DNA of 64,000 nucleotides. Source: Candidatus Poribacteria bacterium (GTDB lineage Bacteria; Poribacteria; WGA-4E; WGA-3G). Positions 663 through 52,977 of the stretch are shown here, piece by piece (the first letter of the stretch is position 1; each line of letters begins with the position of its first letter). The translations under genes and the position numbers were made by a program. The stretch spans positions 1,139,772 to 1,203,771 of the forward strand of contig CBDFHD010000002.1 in the NCBI GenBank assembly GCA_965247285.1, in the 5' to 3' direction. The notes beneath the pieces are model-generated. The model had not been told where the DNA came from and did not search any database. It saw only the letters and a program-made list of their open reading frames with translations.

Positions 663-2564
663 CTATAGAAAAAACAGATAGTATGCGAGGAATAACACAA
701 TTCCGAGAACCATTGATACAATATAGGATTGGACAAGTCCTGTCTGGAGGCGTCGCAACGTTCCGCCAATCAAACGGATGATAGATGCCACACCGTTGAC
801 AATCCCATCAATAATGCCGTTATCTACAATCCGCCATAAGAGGAAATGAGAACCGTTTTTAATCGGTTGCACAATGAGTGCGTTATATACCTCATCAACA
901 TAATACTTGTTCGCAAGAAGCTTGTGTAGTGCATTGGTAGGTTCGTCAGATGGTACTCGTTTGCTATAACGTGTCCACGCGAACGCAATACCCGCCAGAC
1001 CGACAACCGATGAAATTGCCATAAACAGAAATACATTACCGGATGCCTCATGGTGCGTCTCTGGAAAAACACTCTTCGTGAAGTCGTGGAACCAACTCTC
1101 ATGTCCACCCCACCCCAACAGCAAGCCAATTAAGGCAGAGGGAATCGCCAGAATCGCCAGCGGCACCCACATGACTGGTGGCGATTCGTGCAGATGCGAA
1201 GCAACTTCGGATTCAACACGAGATCCACCATAAAACGTCACGAAGATCAGGCGGAACATATAAAACGCCGTTAAGAATGCCGTGACTAAACCGATGACGT
1301 AAATAAGAGGCGAACTCCCCCATGCACTGTGTAAGATTTCATCTTTGCTCCAGAATCCGCTTAGAAACGGAAATCCGGCAATGGCAAGCGCACCTACTAA
1401 AAAGGTCCAGTGCGTTATCGGCATCTTTGCCTTTAAGCCGCCCATCTTCCGCATATCCAATTCATTCGCCATCGCGTGCATCACACTACCAGCGGTGAGG
1501 AACATCAGCCCTTTAAAGAAGGCATGCGTTACTAAATGGAAAACGCCAGACGCATAAGCACCAACACCAACACCAAGGAACATGAATCCGAGTTGGCTCA
1601 CAGTGGAATAGGCGAGAATGCGTTTTATATCGTTCTGGGTAAGTGCTATCGTTGCAGCGAAGAACGCAGTCAAAACACCGATCCAAGCGACCACTTCACC
1701 GGTGTGCGCTATGTTATAAAGCACAGCCGAGCGTGCTATCATATATACGCCTGCTGTCACCATTGTAGCGGCGTGAATCAAGGCACTGACAGGTGTAGGA
1801 CCTTCCATTGCGTCCGGGAGCCATACATAGAGCGGAATCTGCGCCGATTTACCTATCGCGCCAACGAAGAGTAGCAAGGTCGCAATTACAAGGGTACTGG
1901 CACCAAAGATTTTCTGAAAATTATCTGCCTCAGCGGCATCAAATATCGATGCGAAATCGAGAGTCCCAAAAGCTGCAAACAGGGTAAACATCCCCAGCAG
2001 AAAACCGAAATCACCGATTCGGTTCACGATGAACGCCTTTTTCCCAGCGTCTATCGCTGACTGCTTTTGGTACCAGAACCCGATCAGTAGGTAGGAACAA
2101 AGTCCGACCCCTTCCCATCCGATGAACATCATCAGATAGTTGTTGCCGAGGACCAAGATTAGCATTGCAAAGATGAACAGGTTCAGATAGGCAAAATAGC
2201 GCGTATATCCTTCATCGCCATGCATGTAGCCGATGGAATAGACGTGGATGAGAAACCCAACACCTGTAATCACTAACAACATCACTGACGTTAGTGCGTC
2301 CACACGGAACCCAATATTGAAAGCGAACGACTCACCTGTAATCCATTCATATAGCGTTTCATCAAACGGGGCAGCACCGCCGTGCAAACTGGCAAAAGCG
2401 ATAATCGAACAGACTAAAGAAACAAGCACTGCAAGCGAACCTATCCACCCGCTCAGTTGCTCGTTACCTTTTAGCCCCTTATTTTCTGAAAGTCCTAATA
2501 ACCCGTTAATCAGAAACCCAACAAGCGGGGCAACTAACAAGACAACAATTAATTCAAGTGACAT
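663..2564 (-). CDS. nuoL: NADH-quinone oxidoreductase subunit L
   Basis: 633-aa polytopic membrane protein with the antiporter-like NuoL/ND5 signature (WLPDAMEGPTPVSALIHAATMVTAGVY). Lies at the end of the nuo cluster. Confidence 0.9.
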   Translation of the reverse strand: MSLELIVVLLVAPLVGFLINGLLGLSENKGLKGNEQLSGWIGSLAVLVSLVCSIIAFASLHGGAAPFDETLYEWITGESFAFNIGFRVDALTSVMLLVITGVGFLIHVYSIGYMHGDEGYTRYFAYLNLFIFAMLILVLGNNYLMMFIGWEGVGLCSYLLIGFWYQKQSAIDAGKKAFIVNRIGDFGFLLGMFTLFAAFGTLDFASIFDAAEADNFQKIFGASTLVIATLLLFVGAIGKSAQIPLYVWLPDAMEGPTPVSALIHAATMVTAGVYMIARSAVLYNIAHTGEVVAWIGVLTAFFAATIALTQNDIKRILAYSTVSQLGFMFLGVGVGAYASGVFHLVTHAFFKGLMFLTAGSVMHAMANELDMRKMGGLKAKMPITHWTFLVGALAIAGFPFLSGFWSKDEILHSAWGSSPLIYVIGLVTAFLTAFYMFRLIFVTFYGGSRVESEVASHLHESPPVMWVPLAILAIPSALIGLLLGWGGHESWFHDFTKSVFPETHHEASGNVFLFMAISSVVGLAGIAFAWTRYSKRVPSDEPTNALHKLLANKYYVDEVYNALIVQPIKNGSHFLLWRIVDNGIIDGIVNGVASIIRLIGGTLRRLQTGLVQSYIVSMVLGIVLFLAYYLFFL

Positions 2565-2754: not shown

Positions 2755-3054
2755 CTAACCTTTCAACGAATTAATTTCATCCACATTAACCGTCTGCCGA
2801 TGTTTGAAGACGCTCACAATAATTGCGAGCCCAATCGCGACCTCGGCAGCAGCGACAGTCATCACAAAGAAAACGAATATTTGTCCTGTTGCCTCACCGA
2901 GACTACGACTGATTGCCACAAAAGCGAGATTCGCCGCATTTAGCATCAGTTCAATACACATAAAGATGATAATAGCGTTCCTGCGGACGAGGACCCCGAT
3001 GACTCCCGTTGCAAACAAGAGTGCGCTCAAAATGAGATAATACTCTAATGACAT
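2755..3054 (-). CDS. nuoK: NADH-quinone oxidoreductase subunit K
   Basis: About 100 aa with 3 TM helices from the internal Met ([14 protein letters not shown]...). Start is preceded by AAGGAAAATTAAAAAT on the coding strand. The track ORF extends further upstream, probably spuriously. Confidence 0.85.
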
Positions 3055-3125
3055 ATTTTTAATTTTCCTTGCGGTTCGGTCAAGTAACTTTGGAACTTTG
3101 ACATTCCGTGGCGTAAACCCGCCTT

Positions 3126-3194
3126 CCAAATGTAAAGCAAAGACAAATTATGCCATTTAAGGCATAATTTCATTACAGGCTACGTTTTTGATGC
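3126..3194. repeat. intercistronic repeat family 'CCAAATGTAAAGCAAAGACAAATT + palindrome'. Copies at 3126-3194, 18078-18150, 12455-12510; partial copies at 8568-8600 and 4980-5012
   Basis: Direct reading. Copies 3126 and 18078 are near-identical over about 70 bp. The palindrome AAATTATGCC-ATTTAA-GGCATAATTT becomes AAATTGTGCT-TTAAT-AGCACAATTT at 12471 and AATGAAAATG-TTTG-CATTTTCATT at 4988. Confidence 0.75.
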
Positions 3195-6779: not shown

Positions 6780-6883
6780 CTTTTAATTTTCCTTTTTCTA
6801 ATTTTCCTTGCGGAGAAACAACGTGGGTTAGAACTATCCGCTGCCTTTCCTTAAATCCGCTCTCCATTTCATTACGAGCTACG
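6780..6883. repeat. about 100-bp leader repeat 'TTTTAATTTTCCTTGCGGAGAAAC(A/G)ACGTG(G/A)GTTA...', second full copy at 26580-26682. Its start-proximal 20-mer recurs at 3058-3077 and (duplicated, opposite strand) 50881-50917
   Basis: Direct alignment of 6780-6883 with 26580-26682, about 80 percent identical. All copies abut a start codon (nuoG, amidohydrolase, nuoK, comD-like). They supply AAGGAAAATTAAAA as the RBS. Confidence 0.7.
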
Positions 6884-7023
6884 GTTTTTGGTTTCATCTT
6901 TAACGCCTGTAACTGAAAACGGCAGCTTGCATTCTCACTGCGAAGCAGGCGCAAGCGGGTCTACGTAAAGGCACGCTATTCATCAAACCGAACTGACCGA
7001 ACCACAAGGAACAATTAAAAAAC

Positions 7024-8508
7024 CTACAGGTCAGCGAACTCTTTCGGAACAAATCGCTGTTGATACGCGTAATTTTCCTCCGGTGGTACAGTCGCCTCAG
7101 CAACCGGTAGGGTGACGAGTTTACCTTCTCGGAGGGCGGCTTCAAATTCGGGGCGGAACTTACGCATATAACTCACGGCGGGCCAGGAAACAGCGATGCC
7201 AAAAACACAAATCGTATTCCAGGTCATCGTATCCACATTCGCGATGTTATTGGCGACACTTTCCAGCAAATCTAAGTCTTCGTAGATTTCTTCTGTCTCA
7301 CCGGTATCGCCCCATCTACCATTTGCAGCGACACCGAATTTGGGGCGCATAATAGTGCTTTTTTGCCCGTTTCCGTCGGCAATCCGTTGGACAATATCTC
7401 GCACCCACGGGGTCCCCCAGCGGCACGGTGTGCACTGTCCACAAGATTCGTGCGCGTAGAACTTCATGATATTGAGCAGGCAATCGACGATATTCCGAGT
7501 CTCGTTCATGACAATGATGCCACCGGAACCGAGCATCGATTTGGCAAGCGTGAGTGCAGTAAAATCGAGTCGTGTGTCCAACTCATAATGCGTTAAAATC
7601 GGTGCAGAACTACCACCGGGTATAACTGCTTTCACCTCTTCGCCGCGCAGTCCACCTGCAACTTCAATAAGTTCTGAACATGTCAAGCCGAGCTCAAGTT
7701 CATAAACGCCGGGTTCGTTAACATCACCACTGATGCAATAAAGCTTCGTGCCCGTGTTGGGGTCGGGTGTCGGCGGATCAGACCGCGTATCGGCATACGT
7801 TGGTCCCATTTGGGTGTACCATTCAACGCCGTTGCCAACGATAAAAGGCAGGTTACACAATGTCTCAACATTCTGTACCACGGTTGGCTTTCCAAACACA
7901 CCTGCAACAGCAGGGAACGGGGGTTTGTTCCGAGGTTGCCCACGTTTCCCTTCAAGCGATTCAATGAGTCCCGTCTCCTCGCCACAGATATAGGCACCGG
8001 CTCCTGGGTGTGAATAGATGTCAACGTTGAGTCCTGTACCACGAATGTCTTTGCCGAGGTATCCCTTTTCGTATGCCTCCTTGATAGCGGCATCCAACAT
8101 CTTTTTCCCAAGGGTGAATTCACCCCGAATGTAGATATAAGCTGTCTCGATACCCATTGCATAGCAGCAAATCAGGATGCCTTCAATCAATAGGTGTGGA
8201 TTCTTTTCCAAAACGTAGCGGTTACTGAACGTTCCTGGCTCACTTTCGTCAGCGTTGCAACAGAGGTAACACGGCTTTATATCTTTCGGAACGAAACTCC
8301 ATTTCAAGCCCGTCGAGAATCCGGCACCGCCCCTACCTTTCAACCCGGAATCCATCACCATTTTAGCGATATCGTCTGGTTGATATTCCGCAATTGCCTT
8401 TTCAAAACGGGCGTAGCCGTCGTATTGCCGAAAGACATCGAACGTGTTAATATCAGGTACATCCAGATGCTCGTAGAGAATTCGTCTTTCTTGAATTTTT
8501 TTAATCAT
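7024..8508 (-). CDS. nuoF: NADH-quinone oxidoreductase subunit F
   Basis: 494 aa with the NADH/FMN-binding 51-kDa subunit signature (GRGGAGFSTGLKW, ESCGQCTPCR). Confidence 0.9.
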   Translation of the reverse strand: MIKKIQERRILYEHLDVPDINTFDVFRQYDGYARFEKAIAEYQPDDIAKMVMDSGLKGRGGAGFSTGLKWSFVPKDIKPCYLCCNADESEPGTFSNRYVLEKNPHLLIEGILICCYAMGIETAYIYIRGEFTLGKKMLDAAIKEAYEKGYLGKDIRGTGLNVDIYSHPGAGAYICGEETGLIESLEGKRGQPRNKPPFPAVAGVFGKPTVVQNVETLCNLPFIVGNGVEWYTQMGPTYADTRSDPPTPDPNTGTKLYCISGDVNEPGVYELELGLTCSELIEVAGGLRGEEVKAVIPGGSSAPILTHYELDTRLDFTALTLAKSMLGSGGIIVMNETRNIVDCLLNIMKFYAHESCGQCTPCRWGTPWVRDIVQRIADGNGQKSTIMRPKFGVAANGRWGDTGETEEIYEDLDLLESVANNIANVDTMTWNTICVFGIAVSWPAVSYMRKFRPEFEAALREGKLVTLPVAEATVPPEENYAYQQRFVPKEFADL

Positions 8509-8606
8509 GCGGGTTTTCGCTCCGATTTTTCCGTTGTCAAAATCGGGTCTTCGATGAATTTGAACAACAAATGTAAAGCAAACTGTGTGCTAATAGCAAC
8601 CTCTGC

Positions 8607-12420: not shown

Positions 12421-12691
12421 TGTTTCTAATCTATTTTGCCCTCACACATCTTAATAATGTAAAGCAAAGACAAATTGTGCTTTAATAGCACAATTTGGCA
12501 TCGCAAACTTTGCCAAAGTAAAAGGTTAATGCCGACTCAAACACACATTTTTCTAATATGTTTAATAGTTTCTCATAATTCAAAAACATTGTCAAGTTTT
12601 TTTTAGAAAAAAACGAAAGATGAAAACAAATTTCTGGGGTTGGCACTTCAAACCTATGTGCTTCGTGCTGGATAAAAAACATATTTTCCTG

Positions 12692-17362: not shown

Positions 17363-18007
17363 CTACGGCGACAAGCGTTTCATCTCCCATGCTCCATCGG
17401 GCAGTAGCGTATAACAGAGCCGATCATGAAGGCGGTTTGGACACCCTTGCCAAAATTCAAACAGATTCGGTACGAGCCGGTACCCACCCCAATGAGGGGG
17501 ACGCGGAATGGCATCGGGTGCATAAGTCTGTTCTGCGCGTTGATACCCCTCTGTAAGGTGCTCTCGTCCCGCAATCACAAGACTTTGGTGTTCTGTCTGC
17601 ACGGCGAGTTGACTCTCGACGGGACGGTTGGCGAAGTAGGCATCTGATTCTTCAGCACTCATCTTCTCCACAATACCCGTACTCCGAACTTGCCGGTCGA
17701 GTTCACGCCAATAGAACACCAACGCGGCGTTCGGATTCTCCGCGAGTTCCTTTCCCTTTTGGCTCTCATAGTCAGTGTAGAAACAGAAACCGTTCGCATC
17801 AAAGCCTCTGAGTACCACCATTCGGGCAGATGGAATCCCTTGTGGCGTTGCCGTTGCTAACGTCATAGCATCCGGCAAATCAAGTTTAGCGGCAATCGCA
17901 TCTGCGAACCATTGCTCAAACTGTTCAAACGGATCGGACGAGGCGTTCTCTTCAAGCAGATGTCCACTCTGTGCTCTATATTCTCTACGTAGTTTATCAG
18001 TGTTCAT
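17363..18007 (-). CDS. pdxH: pyridoxamine 5'-phosphate oxidase
   Basis: 214 aa. FMN-binding split-barrel motifs (MVVLRGFDANGFCFYTDYESQKG) and C-terminal RLHDR. Confidence 0.85.
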   Translation of the reverse strand: MNTDKLRREYRAQSGHLLEENASSDPFEQFEQWFADAIAAKLDLPDAMTLATATPQGIPSARMVVLRGFDANGFCFYTDYESQKGKELAENPNAALVFYWRELDRQVRSTGIVEKMSAEESDAYFANRPVESQLAVQTEHQSLVIAGREHLTEGYQRAEQTYAPDAIPRPPHWGGYRLVPNLFEFWQGCPNRLHDRLCYTLLPDGAWEMKRLSP

Positions 18008-18275
18008 TTTTTTAACTATGGTCTCCTGGGCTGTGCTCTATTACATTTTTTTAATTATTGGGTTTTCGCCCTGCGCTCCAAATGTAAAGCAAAGACAAAT
18101 TATGCCATTTAAGGCATAATTTCATTACGCGTAGGTTTTTGAGTATTCTGAATATCCTTCTTAAAATCGAACCGCAAGCCCGTAACGTAGTGGAGGGCGA
18201 CTCGAAATCAAAAACTTTCAAATTGCAGACCACGTTACTTATCCACAAGGTAAAATTAAAAAAACCGCGGACTGT

Positions 18276-19781
18276 TTACCTTTTCCAGAAATTCGGTGAA
18301 AAGAGGATAAGCACGGTATAAAGTTCTAAACGTCCGAGTAACATGCAGAAGGATAGAACAAATTTACCAGCCGTGTGAATATGTGCGTAGTTGTCAGTCG
18401 GTCCGACGCTGCCGAGACCGGGACCGATGTTTCCCATCGTAGCGATTGTCGCCCCGGCGGCACTAATGAGATCAAGCCCCAAAGTTGCCATAAGACATGT
18501 TACAATCGCAAAAATTCCGATGAAAAAGAAAAAGAAACCGAGAACATTGGTCATCACTTCGGGTGGTACCACTCGATCGTTAACGCGAATAGGAAGCACG
18601 GCATGGGGGAAGATCAGGCGTTTAATTTCGGCACCGCTCTGTTTGATGAGAAGTAGGAACCGAACCTGCTTTATACCTCCACCGGTGGAACCCGCACAAC
18701 CGCCGTAGAACATAAGTATCACCAAAATGAATTGGGAGAGGGCGGGCCATTGCTCAAAGTCAGCAGTCCCATAGCCAGTAGTTGTAATGATAGACATGAC
18801 CTGAAATGTAGCATAACGCAGCGATGTCCACATCGAATCATAAGGGATATCCCCATCGACTTGAAACCTGATTGTATTCCATGAAATTAAGGTAATACTC
18901 ACTGCGATAACGATACAGTAGAATTTGAATTCTGCATCTTGGAAATAGGCTTTAACATCGCCTCGAAGGGCGCGATAATGAAGGGCGAAATTGGTCCCAG
19001 CGAGAAACATGAAGCAACTGATTACCATGTCAATATAAACACTATTGTAGTGCCCGATGCTAAGGTTCTTCGTCGAAAATCCACCGGTCGCCATCGTGCC
19101 AAAGGTATGGCAGAGCGCGTCAAAAAGCGACATTCCCCCGAACATCAGCAGCACCGTTTCTAAAAGAGAGAGCAGGAGATAAACGCCCCAGAGAAGTTTA
19201 GCGGTTTGTGCAATACGGGGGGTGAGTCGATCGGTTTGCGGTCCGGGTGCCTCGGCACGAAAAAGCTGCATACCACCGATGCCGAGCATTGGAAGAATCG
19301 CTACGGCAAGGACAACAATTCCCATCCCACCGAGCCAGTGGGAAAGACTCCGCCAGAAGAGCATAGCGTGTGAAAGATGCTCAATTTCTGTGAGGACAGT
19401 GGCTCCTGTGGTTGAGAAACCCGCCATAGATTCAAAATAACAGAAGGAAAACTTTGTCCACAAGGAGCGCCCATCCATGTAAAACACATCTGCAAATATG
19501 TAAGGGAGCGAACCAAAGAGGGCGACTGTCACCCATCCCAAAGCGACAACTGCAAAGCCTTCGCGTATGCCGAGTTCTTCCTGCCAGGCGCGTATACTAA
19601 AACGGAGAACTAAACCAACAACTAAGGTGAGTATTGCCGAGACGACGAACGCCGTCAAATTGCTCTCGGTTTCACCTACCCTTATCTGATAATAGATAGC
19701 CACTCCCAAAGGAAGCAGCATCGTTCCCGCGAGACAGATAAGTAAATTACCAAGCGTATAAACGATTAATTTAAGACTCAT
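18276..19781 (-). CDS. trkH: TrkH-family potassium uptake protein
   Basis: 501-aa polytopic membrane protein with repeated M-P-M pore modules containing GFSTTG/TTTGYG-like selectivity sequences. Confidence 0.85.
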   Translation of the reverse strand: MSLKLIVYTLGNLLICLAGTMLLPLGVAIYYQIRVGETESNLTAFVVSAILTLVVGLVLRFSIRAWQEELGIREGFAVVALGWVTVALFGSLPYIFADVFYMDGRSLWTKFSFCYFESMAGFSTTGATVLTEIEHLSHAMLFWRSLSHWLGGMGIVVLAVAILPMLGIGGMQLFRAEAPGPQTDRLTPRIAQTAKLLWGVYLLLSLLETVLLMFGGMSLFDALCHTFGTMATGGFSTKNLSIGHYNSVYIDMVISCFMFLAGTNFALHYRALRGDVKAYFQDAEFKFYCIVIAVSITLISWNTIRFQVDGDIPYDSMWTSLRYATFQVMSIITTTGYGTADFEQWPALSQFILVILMFYGGCAGSTGGGIKQVRFLLLIKQSGAEIKRLIFPHAVLPIRVNDRVVPPEVMTNVLGFFFFFIGIFAIVTCLMATLGLDLISAAGATIATMGNIGPGLGSVGPTDNYAHIHTAGKFVLSFCMLLGRLELYTVLILFSPNFWKR

Positions 19782-26568: not shown

Positions 26569-26801
26569 GAGAAACTCCTTTTTTTAATTTTCCTTGCGGA
26601 GAAACGACGTGAGTTAAAACTCTGATGTGTCTTTCTTAAATCCGCACTCCATTACATTACGTGCTAACGTTTTTGGATCAAAGCGACACATAGCGATCAG
26701 GCCCTCGCTCCTACAGATATTTTCTAATCAAGGTCCCTTCGCTGCGTTGTAGGCTTAGAATCTTAGGCGAATAGGATTATAAAAAACTTCTTTCTGCTTC
26801 A

Positions 26802-50743: not shown

Positions 50744-50917
50744 AAATCACGATGTCCGTTACGAAGTTTTCGTTTCACAACAAAGGGGTTTCTTGAGATA
50801 GTATCAAACCCCATAGCCCGTAAGCGTAGCGGAGGGCGGGTTTAAGAAACGCACTTGATAGTCGAAACGCTCGTCCTTCCTCCGCAAGGAAAAATTAAAA
50901 TAAGGAAAAATTAAAAA

Positions 50918-51412
50918 TTGGCATCAGCACAGAAGATAGTAAATGAATTAAAAAAACAGGAGATCACCCACGCTGTAGGCGTTCCAGATAACGGGAGTGC
51001 CCGGATTTATGAACTCTTACGATCAGAGCCTGGTATCGAAGTCATTACGGTCACTCGCGAAGGGGAAGCATTTGCTATTGCGTCAGGCTTGTACGTTGGT
51101 GGCAAAAAGCCTGTGATCATCATCCAAAATACCGGATTCTTGGAATCAGGCGATGCGATCCGAGGCACCGTTGTCAACATGCGGGTCCCAGTAGTGGTAT
51201 TTATTGGATATCGCGGTTACCACAACCGAGATAGAGATGGACAATGGGTCGATTCTGTAGCGACTTTCCTTGAACCGACGTTGAAAGCATGGAATCTCTC
51301 TTATGAAATGCTTGAAACAGACTCGGATGTTCCCGGCATCGCGAGAGCATTTGAAGAGGCGACAGAGACTTCACTACCAACAGCAGTGCTTCTAATCGGA
51401 CATTCTACATAG
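50918..51412 (+). CDS. sulfopyruvate/phosphonopyruvate decarboxylase alpha-subunit-like TPP-enzyme PYR domain protein (orphan)
   Basis: 164 aa resembling ComD (EITHAVGVPDNGSARIYELL...VTREGEAFAIASGLYVGGKKPVIIIQNTG). Apparent TTG start preceded by a duplicated AAGGAAAAATTAAAA motif. No beta subunit follows. Confidence 0.55.
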   Translation: MASAQKIVNELKKQEITHAVGVPDNGSARIYELLRSEPGIEVITVTREGEAFAIASGLYVGGKKPVIIIQNTGFLESGDAIRGTVVNMRVPVVVFIGYRGYHNRDRDGQWVDSVATFLEPTLKAWNLSYEMLETDSDVPGIARAFEEATETSLPTAVLLIGHST

Positions 51413-51693: not shown

Positions 51694-52977
51694 ATGGAAG
51701 CCGAGTTTTTCGGTGAAACAGCAAGTATTGAAAGTGTTGATCCATACATGGATGCAACATATCCGCCAGATGAGACAGAACCCTCAGAAAGTTATACAGG
51801 TAGCGATCAAAGCGCTTTAACGAGTTGGCTTCGGAGCGTAGCAGGTCACCGTCTGTTAACCCGCGAGGAAGAAGTTCAATTGGCGAAACGGATTGAAGTC
51901 GCAGAAGCTAAAGCACTAGACGAACTATTAGACGCCTTAGTGGAAGTAAACCTATTATCTCGCGAGAAGAGAGAGCAACTGGCAGTACGAATTGAAGCCG
52001 TAGAGGCTAAAGCACTAAACGAACTATTAGATGCCTTAGTGGACGTAGACCTATTATCTCGCGAAAAGAAAGAGCAACTGACAGTACGAATTGGCGCTGG
52101 CAGGAGCGAAACAAGAAAAGCACTGGTAAGCGAACTACAAGACGCACTGGTGAAAGGTGACTCATTATCTGACGAAGAAAAAGATAAACTGACGAAACGA
52201 ATTGGAGTAGCGGAGAGTGAAGCACGTAGGGCACGAGATGAACTTGTCCAAGCGAATCTACGACTCGTAATTTCTATCGCCGTTAAATACCAAGGTCACA
52301 ACGTGCCACTCGAAGATTTGATTCAAGAAGGAAACATCGGACTGATTAAAGCAGCAAGCAAGTTTGACTATCAGAGGGGTTTTAAATTCAGTACGTACGC
52401 GATTTGGTGGATTAAACAAGCGATTATGCGTACGCTTGACAATTTTTCCCGTTCCATTCGATTACCTTCCTACGTAGTTGCAAAGATGAACAAGTTCGAC
52501 GCCGTCTACTCAACGTTGTGTCAAGAACTACAACGCGAGCCGCGGCGCGACGAAATAGCAGACGCTTTAGACTTGACATTGAAACAGGTCGAAGAAATTT
52601 TAACGTTTAACGCTGACGCTATCTCGATGGATTTACCACTTAGCGACGAACGGTCTGCTGCTACATTAGGCGACTTAATCGAAGACCCAACAACCAGTGG
52701 CGAAGGCGGTCCGATCGCAGAAATGATTAATCAGGATTTGACCGCTCAATTTCTCAAAAGACTGCCAGAGCGCGAACAAAGAGTATTGAAGATGCGTTTC
52801 GGACTTGAGGACGGAGAACGGAAAACACTCCGAGAAATCGGTGTCGCTTTGGAAGTTACCCGGGAACGAGTCCGCCAACTGGAAATAGACGCAATCAAAC
52901 GATTGTATAACCTTTATGACGAAATGGGCGAATTTCGGTCAAATCGTCAATCATGGGCAGGGAAAACCGCCGCATAA
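51694..52977 (+). CDS. RNA polymerase sigma factor, sigma-70 family (RpoD-like) with internal 33-aa duplication
   Basis: Regions 1.2, 2 ([37 protein letters not shown]), 3 and 4 ([27 protein letters not shown]). Confidence 0.85.
51889..52086 (+). repeat. 99-bp in-frame tandem duplication (2 copies, roughly 90 percent identical) inside the sigma-factor gene
   Basis: Copy 1 is 51889-51987 and copy 2 is 51988-52086. They encode [33 protein letters not shown] and [33 protein letters not shown]. Confidence 0.7.

Follow-up and report, generated by a model that had tools for sequence, protein, structure and literature searches.

The spacer upstream of nuoG in a Candidatus Poribacteria genome carries a member of a clade-specific intergenic repeat family, with a unit of about 113 nt, of the sponge-symbiont Candidatus Poribacteria. 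This repeat appears to have entered compact spacers, and we propose that it now probably provides the downstream cistron with its translation-initiation region. The element is of a known kind, the structured intergenic repeats that bear a ribosome-binding site (RBS), and the Poribacteria family itself is newly described: we found no earlier description of Poribacteria repeats or RNA motifs in the literature that we searched.

A repeat family of Candidatus Poribacteria

We analyzed a stretch of 64,000 nt (the window). A preliminary description of it had noticed that two stretches, at 6780-6883 (upstream of nuoG) and at 26580-26682 (upstream of an amidohydrolase gene), are about 80% identical. 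The two are indeed homologous: a repeat search matched them at 82% over 65 nt and at 87% over 45 nt, with one indel between, and in a global alignment they agree at 88 of 118 columns if the non-homologous ends are included (~83% over the shared core). The stretches are real, but their limits had been placed slightly out of register with the cores (Table 1). Coincidence, or a simple duplication of one segment at two loci, has nothing in its favor beyond this initial pairwise resemblance, and we consider it extremely improbable. The 20-mer CTCCGCAAGGAAAATTAAAA has 4 matches in the window with at most 3 mismatches, versus 0.04 expected, and the 5' block GGAGnGCGGrTTTAAG has 4 matches at the same four places, versus 0.23 expected. 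The similarity ends at the start codons and is absent from the coding regions; and, as had been pointed out, the adjoining genes are unrelated (Pfam identifies NuoG, Amidohydro_2, NuoK, and TPP_enzyme_N proteins). The 89 matches to a covariance model within one phylum (see below) also argue against this explanation.

With the covariance model, run with its filters off, we identified six copies of the ~113-nt element in the window. The four sense copies end at the starts of nuoG, nuoK, the amidohydrolase gene, and a TPP-enzyme gene; the two inverted copies adjoin the stop codons of upstream genes. The preliminary description had proposed a small family. The family is multi-copy, as proposed, but it is larger than had been claimed, and both inverted copies in the window had been overlooked. 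At nuoK, just the terminal 20-mer had been reported (3058-3077); the 20-mer is present, but it is not alone, as a full divergent copy lies there. At the TPP-enzyme (ComD-like) gene, the duplicated tail that had been noticed is real, but the site is fuller, with a whole copy followed by that duplicated tail. The 20-mer was also said to stand directly before the ATG, and this turned out to be incorrect: a duplicated tail (AAGGAAAATTAAAAG) intervenes at nuoG, and an AAGGAG Shine-Dalgarno (SD) motif intervenes at the amidohydrolase gene, whose ATG (26568) follows this SD of its own, 9 nt past the element.

Table 1. Positions of the repeat units and of related features. Positions are in the window unless preceded by a locus label (L). 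CM, covariance model.
Feature	Position	Strand	Evidence
nuoG sense copy, subfamily a	6792..6905	-	CM 109.5 bits, E 5.6e-21
Hairpin P1 and GTAG lead of nuoG copy	6859-6882		
Tail of nuoG copy, CTCCGCAAGGAAAATTAGAA	6796-6815		
Duplicated tail AAGGAAAATTAAAAG between nuoG copy and nuoG ATG (6779-6777)	6780..6795	-	sequence
Inverted copy, head-to-head with nuoG copy	6899..7023	+	CM 36.1 bits, E 4e-5
Sense copy upstream of amidohydrolase (PF04909) and glycine-cleavage genes	26578..26690	-	CM 112.7 bits
P1 of amidohydrolase copy, GCAC/GTGC	26644-26664		
Tail of amidohydrolase copy	26582-26601		
Sense copy upstream of 164-aa TPP_enzyme_N (ComD-like) gene	50790..50903	+	CM 100.7 bits; Pfam
ATAG and P1 of ComD-like copy	50813-50837		
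Duplicated tail AAGGAAAAATTAAAAA, with TTG start at 50918 directly after	50904..50917	+	sequence
Divergent full copy upstream of nuoK (ATG 3057)	3053..3174	-	CM 38.8 bits, E 1e-5
Inverted copy, antisense to its neighbors	18152..18264	+	CM 60.4 bits, E 2e-10
Repeat family D1	3118-3176, 18070-18128, 12445-12503		
Third module family	2565-2672, 8498-8568, 18047-18077; L005:1560-1597; L084 spacers		
CTGACGACTGATAACTGACAAC-type repeat	L025:1250-1285; L038 near 1200; L019 near 2727; L047 near 2416; L086:8520-8572		
Candidate ATT start, Era	L072:1935-1944		
Candidate ATT start, TrpB	L075:2508-2517		
Candidate ATT start, GFO/IDH/MocA	L020:287-296		
Candidate ATT start, MurJ-like	L044, near 716-725	-	
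Candidate ATT start, PhyH-HEAT	L042:3314		
Candidate ATT start, tmk	L009:5670		

The sense copy and the inverted copy between nuoF and nuoG occupy the whole of the 244-nt spacer. The tail of this inverted copy runs up to the nuoF stop codon (7024), and its hairpin (P1) is GCTTGC/GCAAGC with a loop of 19 nt. In the nuoK copy, the P1 loop holds an insert of about 38 nt from another repeat family (D1). The second inverted copy is followed by no ORF; its tail is aimed at the 3' end of the gene at 18276..19781(-). We also considered whether the amidohydrolase and TPP copies have a degenerate inverted partner on their upstream side, but rejected this, as the covariance model gave only 3 bits. We found no tRNA or tmRNA genes within the window. 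A protein identical to the window's amidohydrolase is encoded on long-read metagenome contigs of ~5.7 Mb.

How widespread is the element? We scanned 185,579 species genomes (one genome per species) for the pattern GCGGRTTTA-N25-55-YCCGCAAGGAAAA and obtained 64 loci with exact matches. In 46 of these, the gap has a fixed length of 35-38 nt, and all 46 are metagenome-assembled genomes (MAGs) of Candidatus Poribacteria, although one (L010) is labelled only "uncultured bacterium." The other 18 loci are from scattered taxa and have arbitrary gaps, as chance predicts. A covariance model of 113 model positions, built from 39 copies, found 74 copies in the pattern loci and none in the 18 non-Poribacteria control loci. 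In total, it found 89 copies in about 0.5 Mb of Poribacteria DNA, all from one phylum; many of these copies are orthologous to each other, so the counts are not of independent events. Complete genomes have at most about 7 exact-pattern matches each, and the copies are clustered. A second scan, of metagenomes with the 5' half of subfamily a alone, yielded 11 loci (six distinct sites), all of which are full-length copies with the tail. Among the copies that were retrieved via the 5' half alone, start codons next to the element are likewise far commoner than expected by chance.

Other repeats lie nearby. Family D1 has a hairpin, TATGCCTTAAATGGCATA, and then TTTGTCTTTGCTTTACAT; it is inserted in the P1 loop of the main element twice, in the nuoK copy and in a chimeric unit at ~18045-18150(-) that the covariance model did not detect. 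In the chimeric unit, at 18045-18050, a minimal ORF (ATG TAA) follows a D3-type tail; the real start of the 17363..18007 gene is 38 nt farther downstream. There is also a third family of modules that lie in front of genes, with the form ..GGAGCGAAAACCCRAT..TTAAAAAA+ATG, often after a palindromic CCGTTGTCAAAATCGGG unit. It precedes nuoL and nuoF and is also found within the upstream region of 17363..18007, and it has only the TTAAAAAA end in common with the main element. A further repeat, with units like CTGACGACTGATAACTGACAAC, lies directly before the ..TTAAAA ATG starts of other genes. Also in the window, a sigma-70 family gene (51694..52977) contains an in-frame tandem duplication of 99 nt (33 codons) at 51853-52050, with 79% identity, between regions 1.2 and 2.

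Anatomy of the unit and its hairpin

In the direction of the downstream gene, the unit consists of four parts: an A-rich 5' flank (..AAAGATRAAAYCAAAAACC); the hairpin P1, led by (G/A)TAG; GGATTTAAGG and then a variable middle of about 30 nt; and a conserved tail, CCGCAAGG(A/T)AAAWTTAAAA (also written ..CGTYGTTTCTCCGCAAGG(A/T)AAAWTTAAAA), which ends 0-3 nt before an ATG or TTG. The T, A, G, and C directly 5' of the stem or entering it are at least 90% conserved, and the base before them is mostly G or A. Two A(A)GGA motifs are conserved in the unit, with a spacing of about 42 nt. We found no terminal inverted repeats (TIRs) in the single unit. We also rejected a conserved peptide inside the element: the positions of ATG and GTG are unconserved, and close copies differ by 1-nt indels.

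P1 is an imperfect palindrome of about 22 nt whose stem is maintained by compensatory changes, with at least four compensatory versions (GCTC/GAGC, GCCC/GGGC, GCAC/GTGC, and GCCTGC/GCAGGC). Across 39 sequences, 84.6% of cells are paired, versus at most 52.7% if the 3' partners are slid; 39 cells have changed on both sides, and none of 500 shuffles reached the observed covariation. Across 72 distinct sequences, three of the pairs are 98-100% paired and alternate between CG, UA, and AU. The excess of G.U over A.C (48 versus 6) favors folding of the sense strand, with most of the G.U coming from one position in one subfamily. (RNAalifold gave only a GCGG/CCGC stem, which was itself fixed by our search pattern, so we used mutual information and explicit pair counts instead.)

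Beyond P1, a helix scan found no second helix of at least 4 pairs with covariation. Pairing of GGAGA with TCTCC and a hairpin in the middle region were supported neither by eye nor by the helix scan, and we rejected both. A long-range helix, AACGAAGTGG/CCACGTCGTT, would join the region of the P1 loop to the 3' part of the unit; it is 70.9% paired, versus at most 51.7% when slid, and is thus less well supported than P1. It is complementary in both main subfamilies and mutually exclusive with P1, and it might be an alternative fold or the trace of a palindromic origin. When folded, as the preliminary description had suggested, single copies are not more stable than shuffles (z = -0.1 to -1.9 for four copies).

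These features bear on whether the unit is a signal-responsive leader, either a riboswitch or the site of one regulator (perhaps CsrA-like, with the two AAGGA motifs), that defines a regulon as REP2/CREN does in Neisseria. The conserved hairpin and the two spaced A(A)GGA motifs would fit such a leader, as would the multiple copies at the 5' ends of genes and the purifying selection on them, and REP2 is a precedent for a repeat-borne regulon in the account in PMC3184786. We nevertheless consider this explanation quite unlikely. Rfam (15) had no match in the window at the gathering score and none near the nuoG copy at E up to 10. A riboswitch or other curated cis-regulatory RNA would be expected to have a conserved multi-helix core and a coherent set of genes. 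In contrast, the Poribacteria unit has one short covarying hairpin, whose loop tolerates insertions of 19-38 nt, and a variable middle with indels; it precedes functionally incoherent genes; some copies are inverted at the 3' ends of genes; and the same operons run without the element in close relatives.

Judging by description only, the nearest functional analogue would be REP2/CREN (contact regulatory element) of Neisseria, along with the Borrelia IR. As described by Delihas 2011 (PMC3184786), these repeats are 120-150 bp, have internal stem-loops and no TIRs, and are found in front of many ORFs, for which they bring an RBS and a start codon; in addition, REP2 contains a promoter, and the genes that it marks are regulated together. 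The Poribacteria unit is similar to REP2 in its size class (~100-150 bp), in its lack of TIRs, in having a (predicted) stem-loop near the 5' end and an RBS motif, in reaching the start codon, and in its tens of copies upstream of many ORFs. Unlike REP2, it has no consistent sigma-70 promoter, it is mostly intercistronic in operons and precedes unrelated housekeeping genes, it is also found inverted at stop codons and in tandem, and it has one supported hairpin. Because we did not find a promoter and because the setting is intercistronic, we did not file the element as a member of REP2.

Placement, conservation, and turnover of the units

We counted the copies and tabulated their distances to start codons, as the preliminary description had proposed. 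In 40 of 89 copies (45%), the ATG, TTG, or GTG of a long ORF lies exactly at the last model positions, and in 15 others a start lies within 40 nt, past a duplicated tail or the gene's own SD. Together, these 55 copies (62%) are far more than chance would give. Another 12 copies offer an in-frame ATT alone, 6 lead into a tandem copy, 9 adjoin or overlap the stop codon of a gene on the other strand, and 7 have nothing nearby. Overall, about 75% of the copies aim at a downstream start or a tandem copy, and about a quarter precede no start codon. The exact-start class includes about 22 different genes, so the signal does not come from recounting one orthologous locus.

The unit is oriented like the gene that follows it (the 50790 copy and its gene are both on the + strand, for example, and the others lie on the - strand). 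The gene upstream is usually close by and co-directional, which makes most units intercistronic. The term "leader" in the preliminary description suits the many copies at starts, but it does not cover the whole family: some 10% of copies lie inverted at stop codons, some 7% lead into a tandem copy, and the majority are found between co-directional genes within operons. The genes downstream include nuoG/H/I/K, secD/F, tmk, lnt, ispH, a tsaC-like gene, cstA, and an RND pump, as well as transporters, dehydrogenases, and enolase-superfamily enzymes. This diversity argues against a metabolite- or regulon-specific leader.

Units are arranged singly, in tandem, or as head-to-head inverted pairs. In the pairs, an inverted copy partners a sense copy, and the pair spans exactly from the upstream stop codon to the next start codon. 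The RNA of such a pair is predicted to fold back into a long hairpin by pairing of the two tails, with UUUUUAAUU..CCUUGCGG opposite CCGCAAGG..AAUUAAAA (folding z = -0.9, -5.9 for L065, and -2.4).

Once fixed, the units are under purifying selection. Orthologous copies of the same subfamily are 0.90-0.99 identical, as compared to 0.50-0.89 at the fourfold-degenerate sites of the gene behind them. The amidohydrolase copy and its orthologue in L064 are 0.98 identical (0.72 at fourfold sites), the tmk copies are 0.97-0.99 identical (0.81-0.89), the nuoG copies of L048 and L067 are 0.97 identical (0.71), and the cstA copies are 0.90 identical (0.50). Other orthologous pairs are just 0.5-0.63 identical, far below the fourfold sites, because a different subfamily lies at the same place. 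Both nuoG and the TPP gene have different subfamilies in different species, and the window's copies are replacements with a duplicated tail: the nuoG orthologues in L048 and L067 have a single tail, versus the duplicated tail in the window, and alignment of the ComD-like orthologues in L057 and L061 showed another subfamily with a single tail.

We obtained eight nuo loci from relatives (L079-L086) via their NuoG homologues. In the relatives whose NuoG is 59-82% identical, the nuo spacers are mostly 8-95 nt (two are longer, at 130 and 214 nt), ordinary GGAGG or AAGGA SDs lie 5-10 nt before the ATG, and the covariance model found no match. At 83% identity (L086), the nuoF-nuoG spacer is 26 nt and has a GGAG SD. 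At 86% identity (L085), the element is present before nuoK only, and a tail-only version precedes nuoH. Between nuoG and nuoH, comparing the window to L048 and L015 gave no clean empty site; clean sites are found in more distant relatives. The compact, element-free spacers of the relatives imply that the compact operon is ancestral and that the element arrived secondarily. The comparison shows that the element and other repeat families apparently invaded the spacers in the window's clade and displaced the native SD region. We also noticed that the nuo operon of this clade (L079-L086) is interrupted by unrelated genes at varying places, with unusually fluid spacers: a glyoxalase-family gene lies between nuoD and nuoE, a PhyH gene lies between nuoF and nuoG (L082), and L086 has a HicAB toxin-antitoxin and a Uma2 gene.

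The preliminary description had called the module mobile. Presence/absence and subfamily turnover point to mobility, but we did not find a transposase, TIRs, or target site duplications (TSDs). Is the element purely selfish, of REP/RAYT or MITE type, with the GTAG hairpin as the site of a Y1 transposase, A/T-rich gene boundaries as the target, and no gain for the host? REP/SMAG elements have a GT[AG]G tetranucleotide 5' of an imperfect palindrome of 21-65 bp and are associated with RAYT (Y1) transposases (Nunvar 2010 and Rocco 2010, as cited in PMC3184786). The (G/A)TAGC that lies 5' of the imperfect palindrome of P1, at least 90% conserved, has this REP/SMAG layout in the terms of the same account. 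Presence or absence at orthologous spacers, subfamily turnover, tandem and inverted arrangements, the presence of another repeat nested within the P1 loop, and the one-sided tail duplications are all consistent with a selfish element as well. However, the orthologous copies, tail included, are more conserved than fourfold sites; the native SD has been replaced, not merely added to; the orientation follows the downstream gene; and the unit is 113 nt and asymmetric. A motif search of 1,253 ORF fragments (~490 kb) for HUH/Y motifs found no RAYT-like ORF, which is a weak test. Overall, a purely selfish element is the main rival explanation but seems unlikely to us. The selfish and initiation-region views could both hold if a mobile element has been domesticated.

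Like REPs, the Poribacteria unit is extragenic and multi-copy, with single, tandem, and inverted arrangements (similar to BIMEs or REPINs), and for both an intra-operon, post-transcriptional effect on the mRNA is plausible. It differs from REPs in its long non-palindromic 3' part, which ends in the initiation region. Also, classic REPs have hundreds of copies, typically at the 3' ends of genes or between convergent genes, while the Poribacteria unit has far fewer exact-pattern matches per genome and is strongly biased in orientation to the downstream gene. MITEs such as Correia/NEMIS of Neisseria and ERIC of enterobacteria are, like the Poribacteria unit, small, non-autonomous, and multi-copy, with hairpins in mRNA and copies that can overlap or supply expression signals; co-transcription, another MITE feature, is probable for the Poribacteria unit. 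The inverted pair mimics a MITE-like element of about 230 bp with TIRs, but the single unit has none. MITEs have a two-sided TSD, whereas the Poribacteria unit has only one-sided tail duplications, and the start-codon registration of 45% of its copies is not a MITE feature.

Start codons and a putative translation-initiation cassette

The preliminary description had proposed that AAGGAAA in the tail is a working SD, and our analysis does not favor this. The AAGGA of the tail lies 11-12 nt away from the ATG, a distance near the upper limit for an SD, and the amidohydrolase gene and several others retain their own AAGGAG or GAGGA between the tail and the ATG. AAGGA is complementary over 5 nt to the usual anti-SD, which may not be that of Poribacteria. 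Furthermore, TTAAAA-ATG also occurs without AAGGA: if TTAAAA is followed by ATG within 0-4 nt, then 55 of 81 such sites (68%) open an ORF of at least 100 codons, versus 17% of all ATGs, and 24 of these 55 starts lie outside the element family, many of them without an SD. This implies that the effect of the tail may not be specific to the element and that the A-rich context may matter as much as AAGGA. The element-free starts are at 2564, 4949, 18007, and 21219 in the window and at 20 other sites in the loci.

TTG or ATT is the start codon of several element-linked genes. Some conserved genes lack a canonical start near the N-terminus, and for these the in-frame ATT of the tail AAATTAAAA gives full-length N-termini (Table 1). 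Under the ATT starts, the profile matches begin at residue 4 for Era, residue 9 for TrpB, residue 2 for MurJ, and residue 3 for the Rossmann domain of GFO. This suggests that these genes may initiate at AUU, with their first codons (M-K-K/N) encoded by the repeat.

A different explanation for the tail's position is that it is a -10 box, with transcription beginning at the A of the ATG, so that the unit is a portable internal promoter for leaderless mRNAs. Consistent with this, the tail variants GGTAAAATT and GGTATAATT place TAAAAT or TATAAT at -12 to -7 from the ATG, the nuoK copy scores as TTGACC-17-AAAAAT, and many TTAAAA-ATG genes have no SD. However, the consensus has no -35 box, sigma-70 consensus scans found no consistent promoter in the copies (matches were at or below the shuffle expectation), and the commonest tail is GGAAAA, not GGTAAA. 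The element-linked genes that start with TTG or ATT also argue against this idea, as these starts are poorly tolerated in leaderless initiation. Finally, most copies are inside operons, right after a co-directional gene. We therefore rate a leaderless promoter as very unlikely.

We instead favor the view that the unit acts in translation. Transcribed together with the rest of the operon, it would function in cis within the mRNA and provide a translation-initiation cassette to the next cistron. Ribosomes would be recruited by AAGGA together with the unstructured, A-rich TTAAAA tract, and the upstream hairpin P1 might be a 5' stabilizer, a processing landmark, or a factor-binding site. In inverted pairs, the initiation region could be hidden by the pairing of the tails and be opened only when the upstream gene is translated, which would give translational coupling. 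The spread and turnover of the units presumably came about by some route of transposition or recombination.

A stronger form of this proposal, which we put forward only tentatively, is that the unit is a portable RNA cassette that has replaced the native SDs of many housekeeping cistrons. The single unit would then provide a hairpin-protected, A-rich, and partly SD-independent start; its own AUU could serve as the start codon (as for Era, TrpB, the MurJ-like protein, and the GFO/IDH/MocA oxidoreductase); and the inverted pair would form a stop-to-start hairpin that enforces coupling over about 240 nt.

For annotation, the intra-operon "spacers" of 110-250 nt in these genomes should be recognized as structured repeats and not as promoters. 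If our proposal is correct, then the element would be a marker for calling start codons correctly, including AUU starts, in Poribacteria MAGs, and it would be a natural portable part for intercistronic expression. It would also be a test case for how selfish intergenic repeats become regulatory sequence of the host. And if the cassette works as we propose, then an uncultivated symbiont lineage has rewired the translation initiation of its core operons (complex I, Sec, and nucleotide and lipid synthesis) via one small repeat, instead of by point evolution of each RBS.
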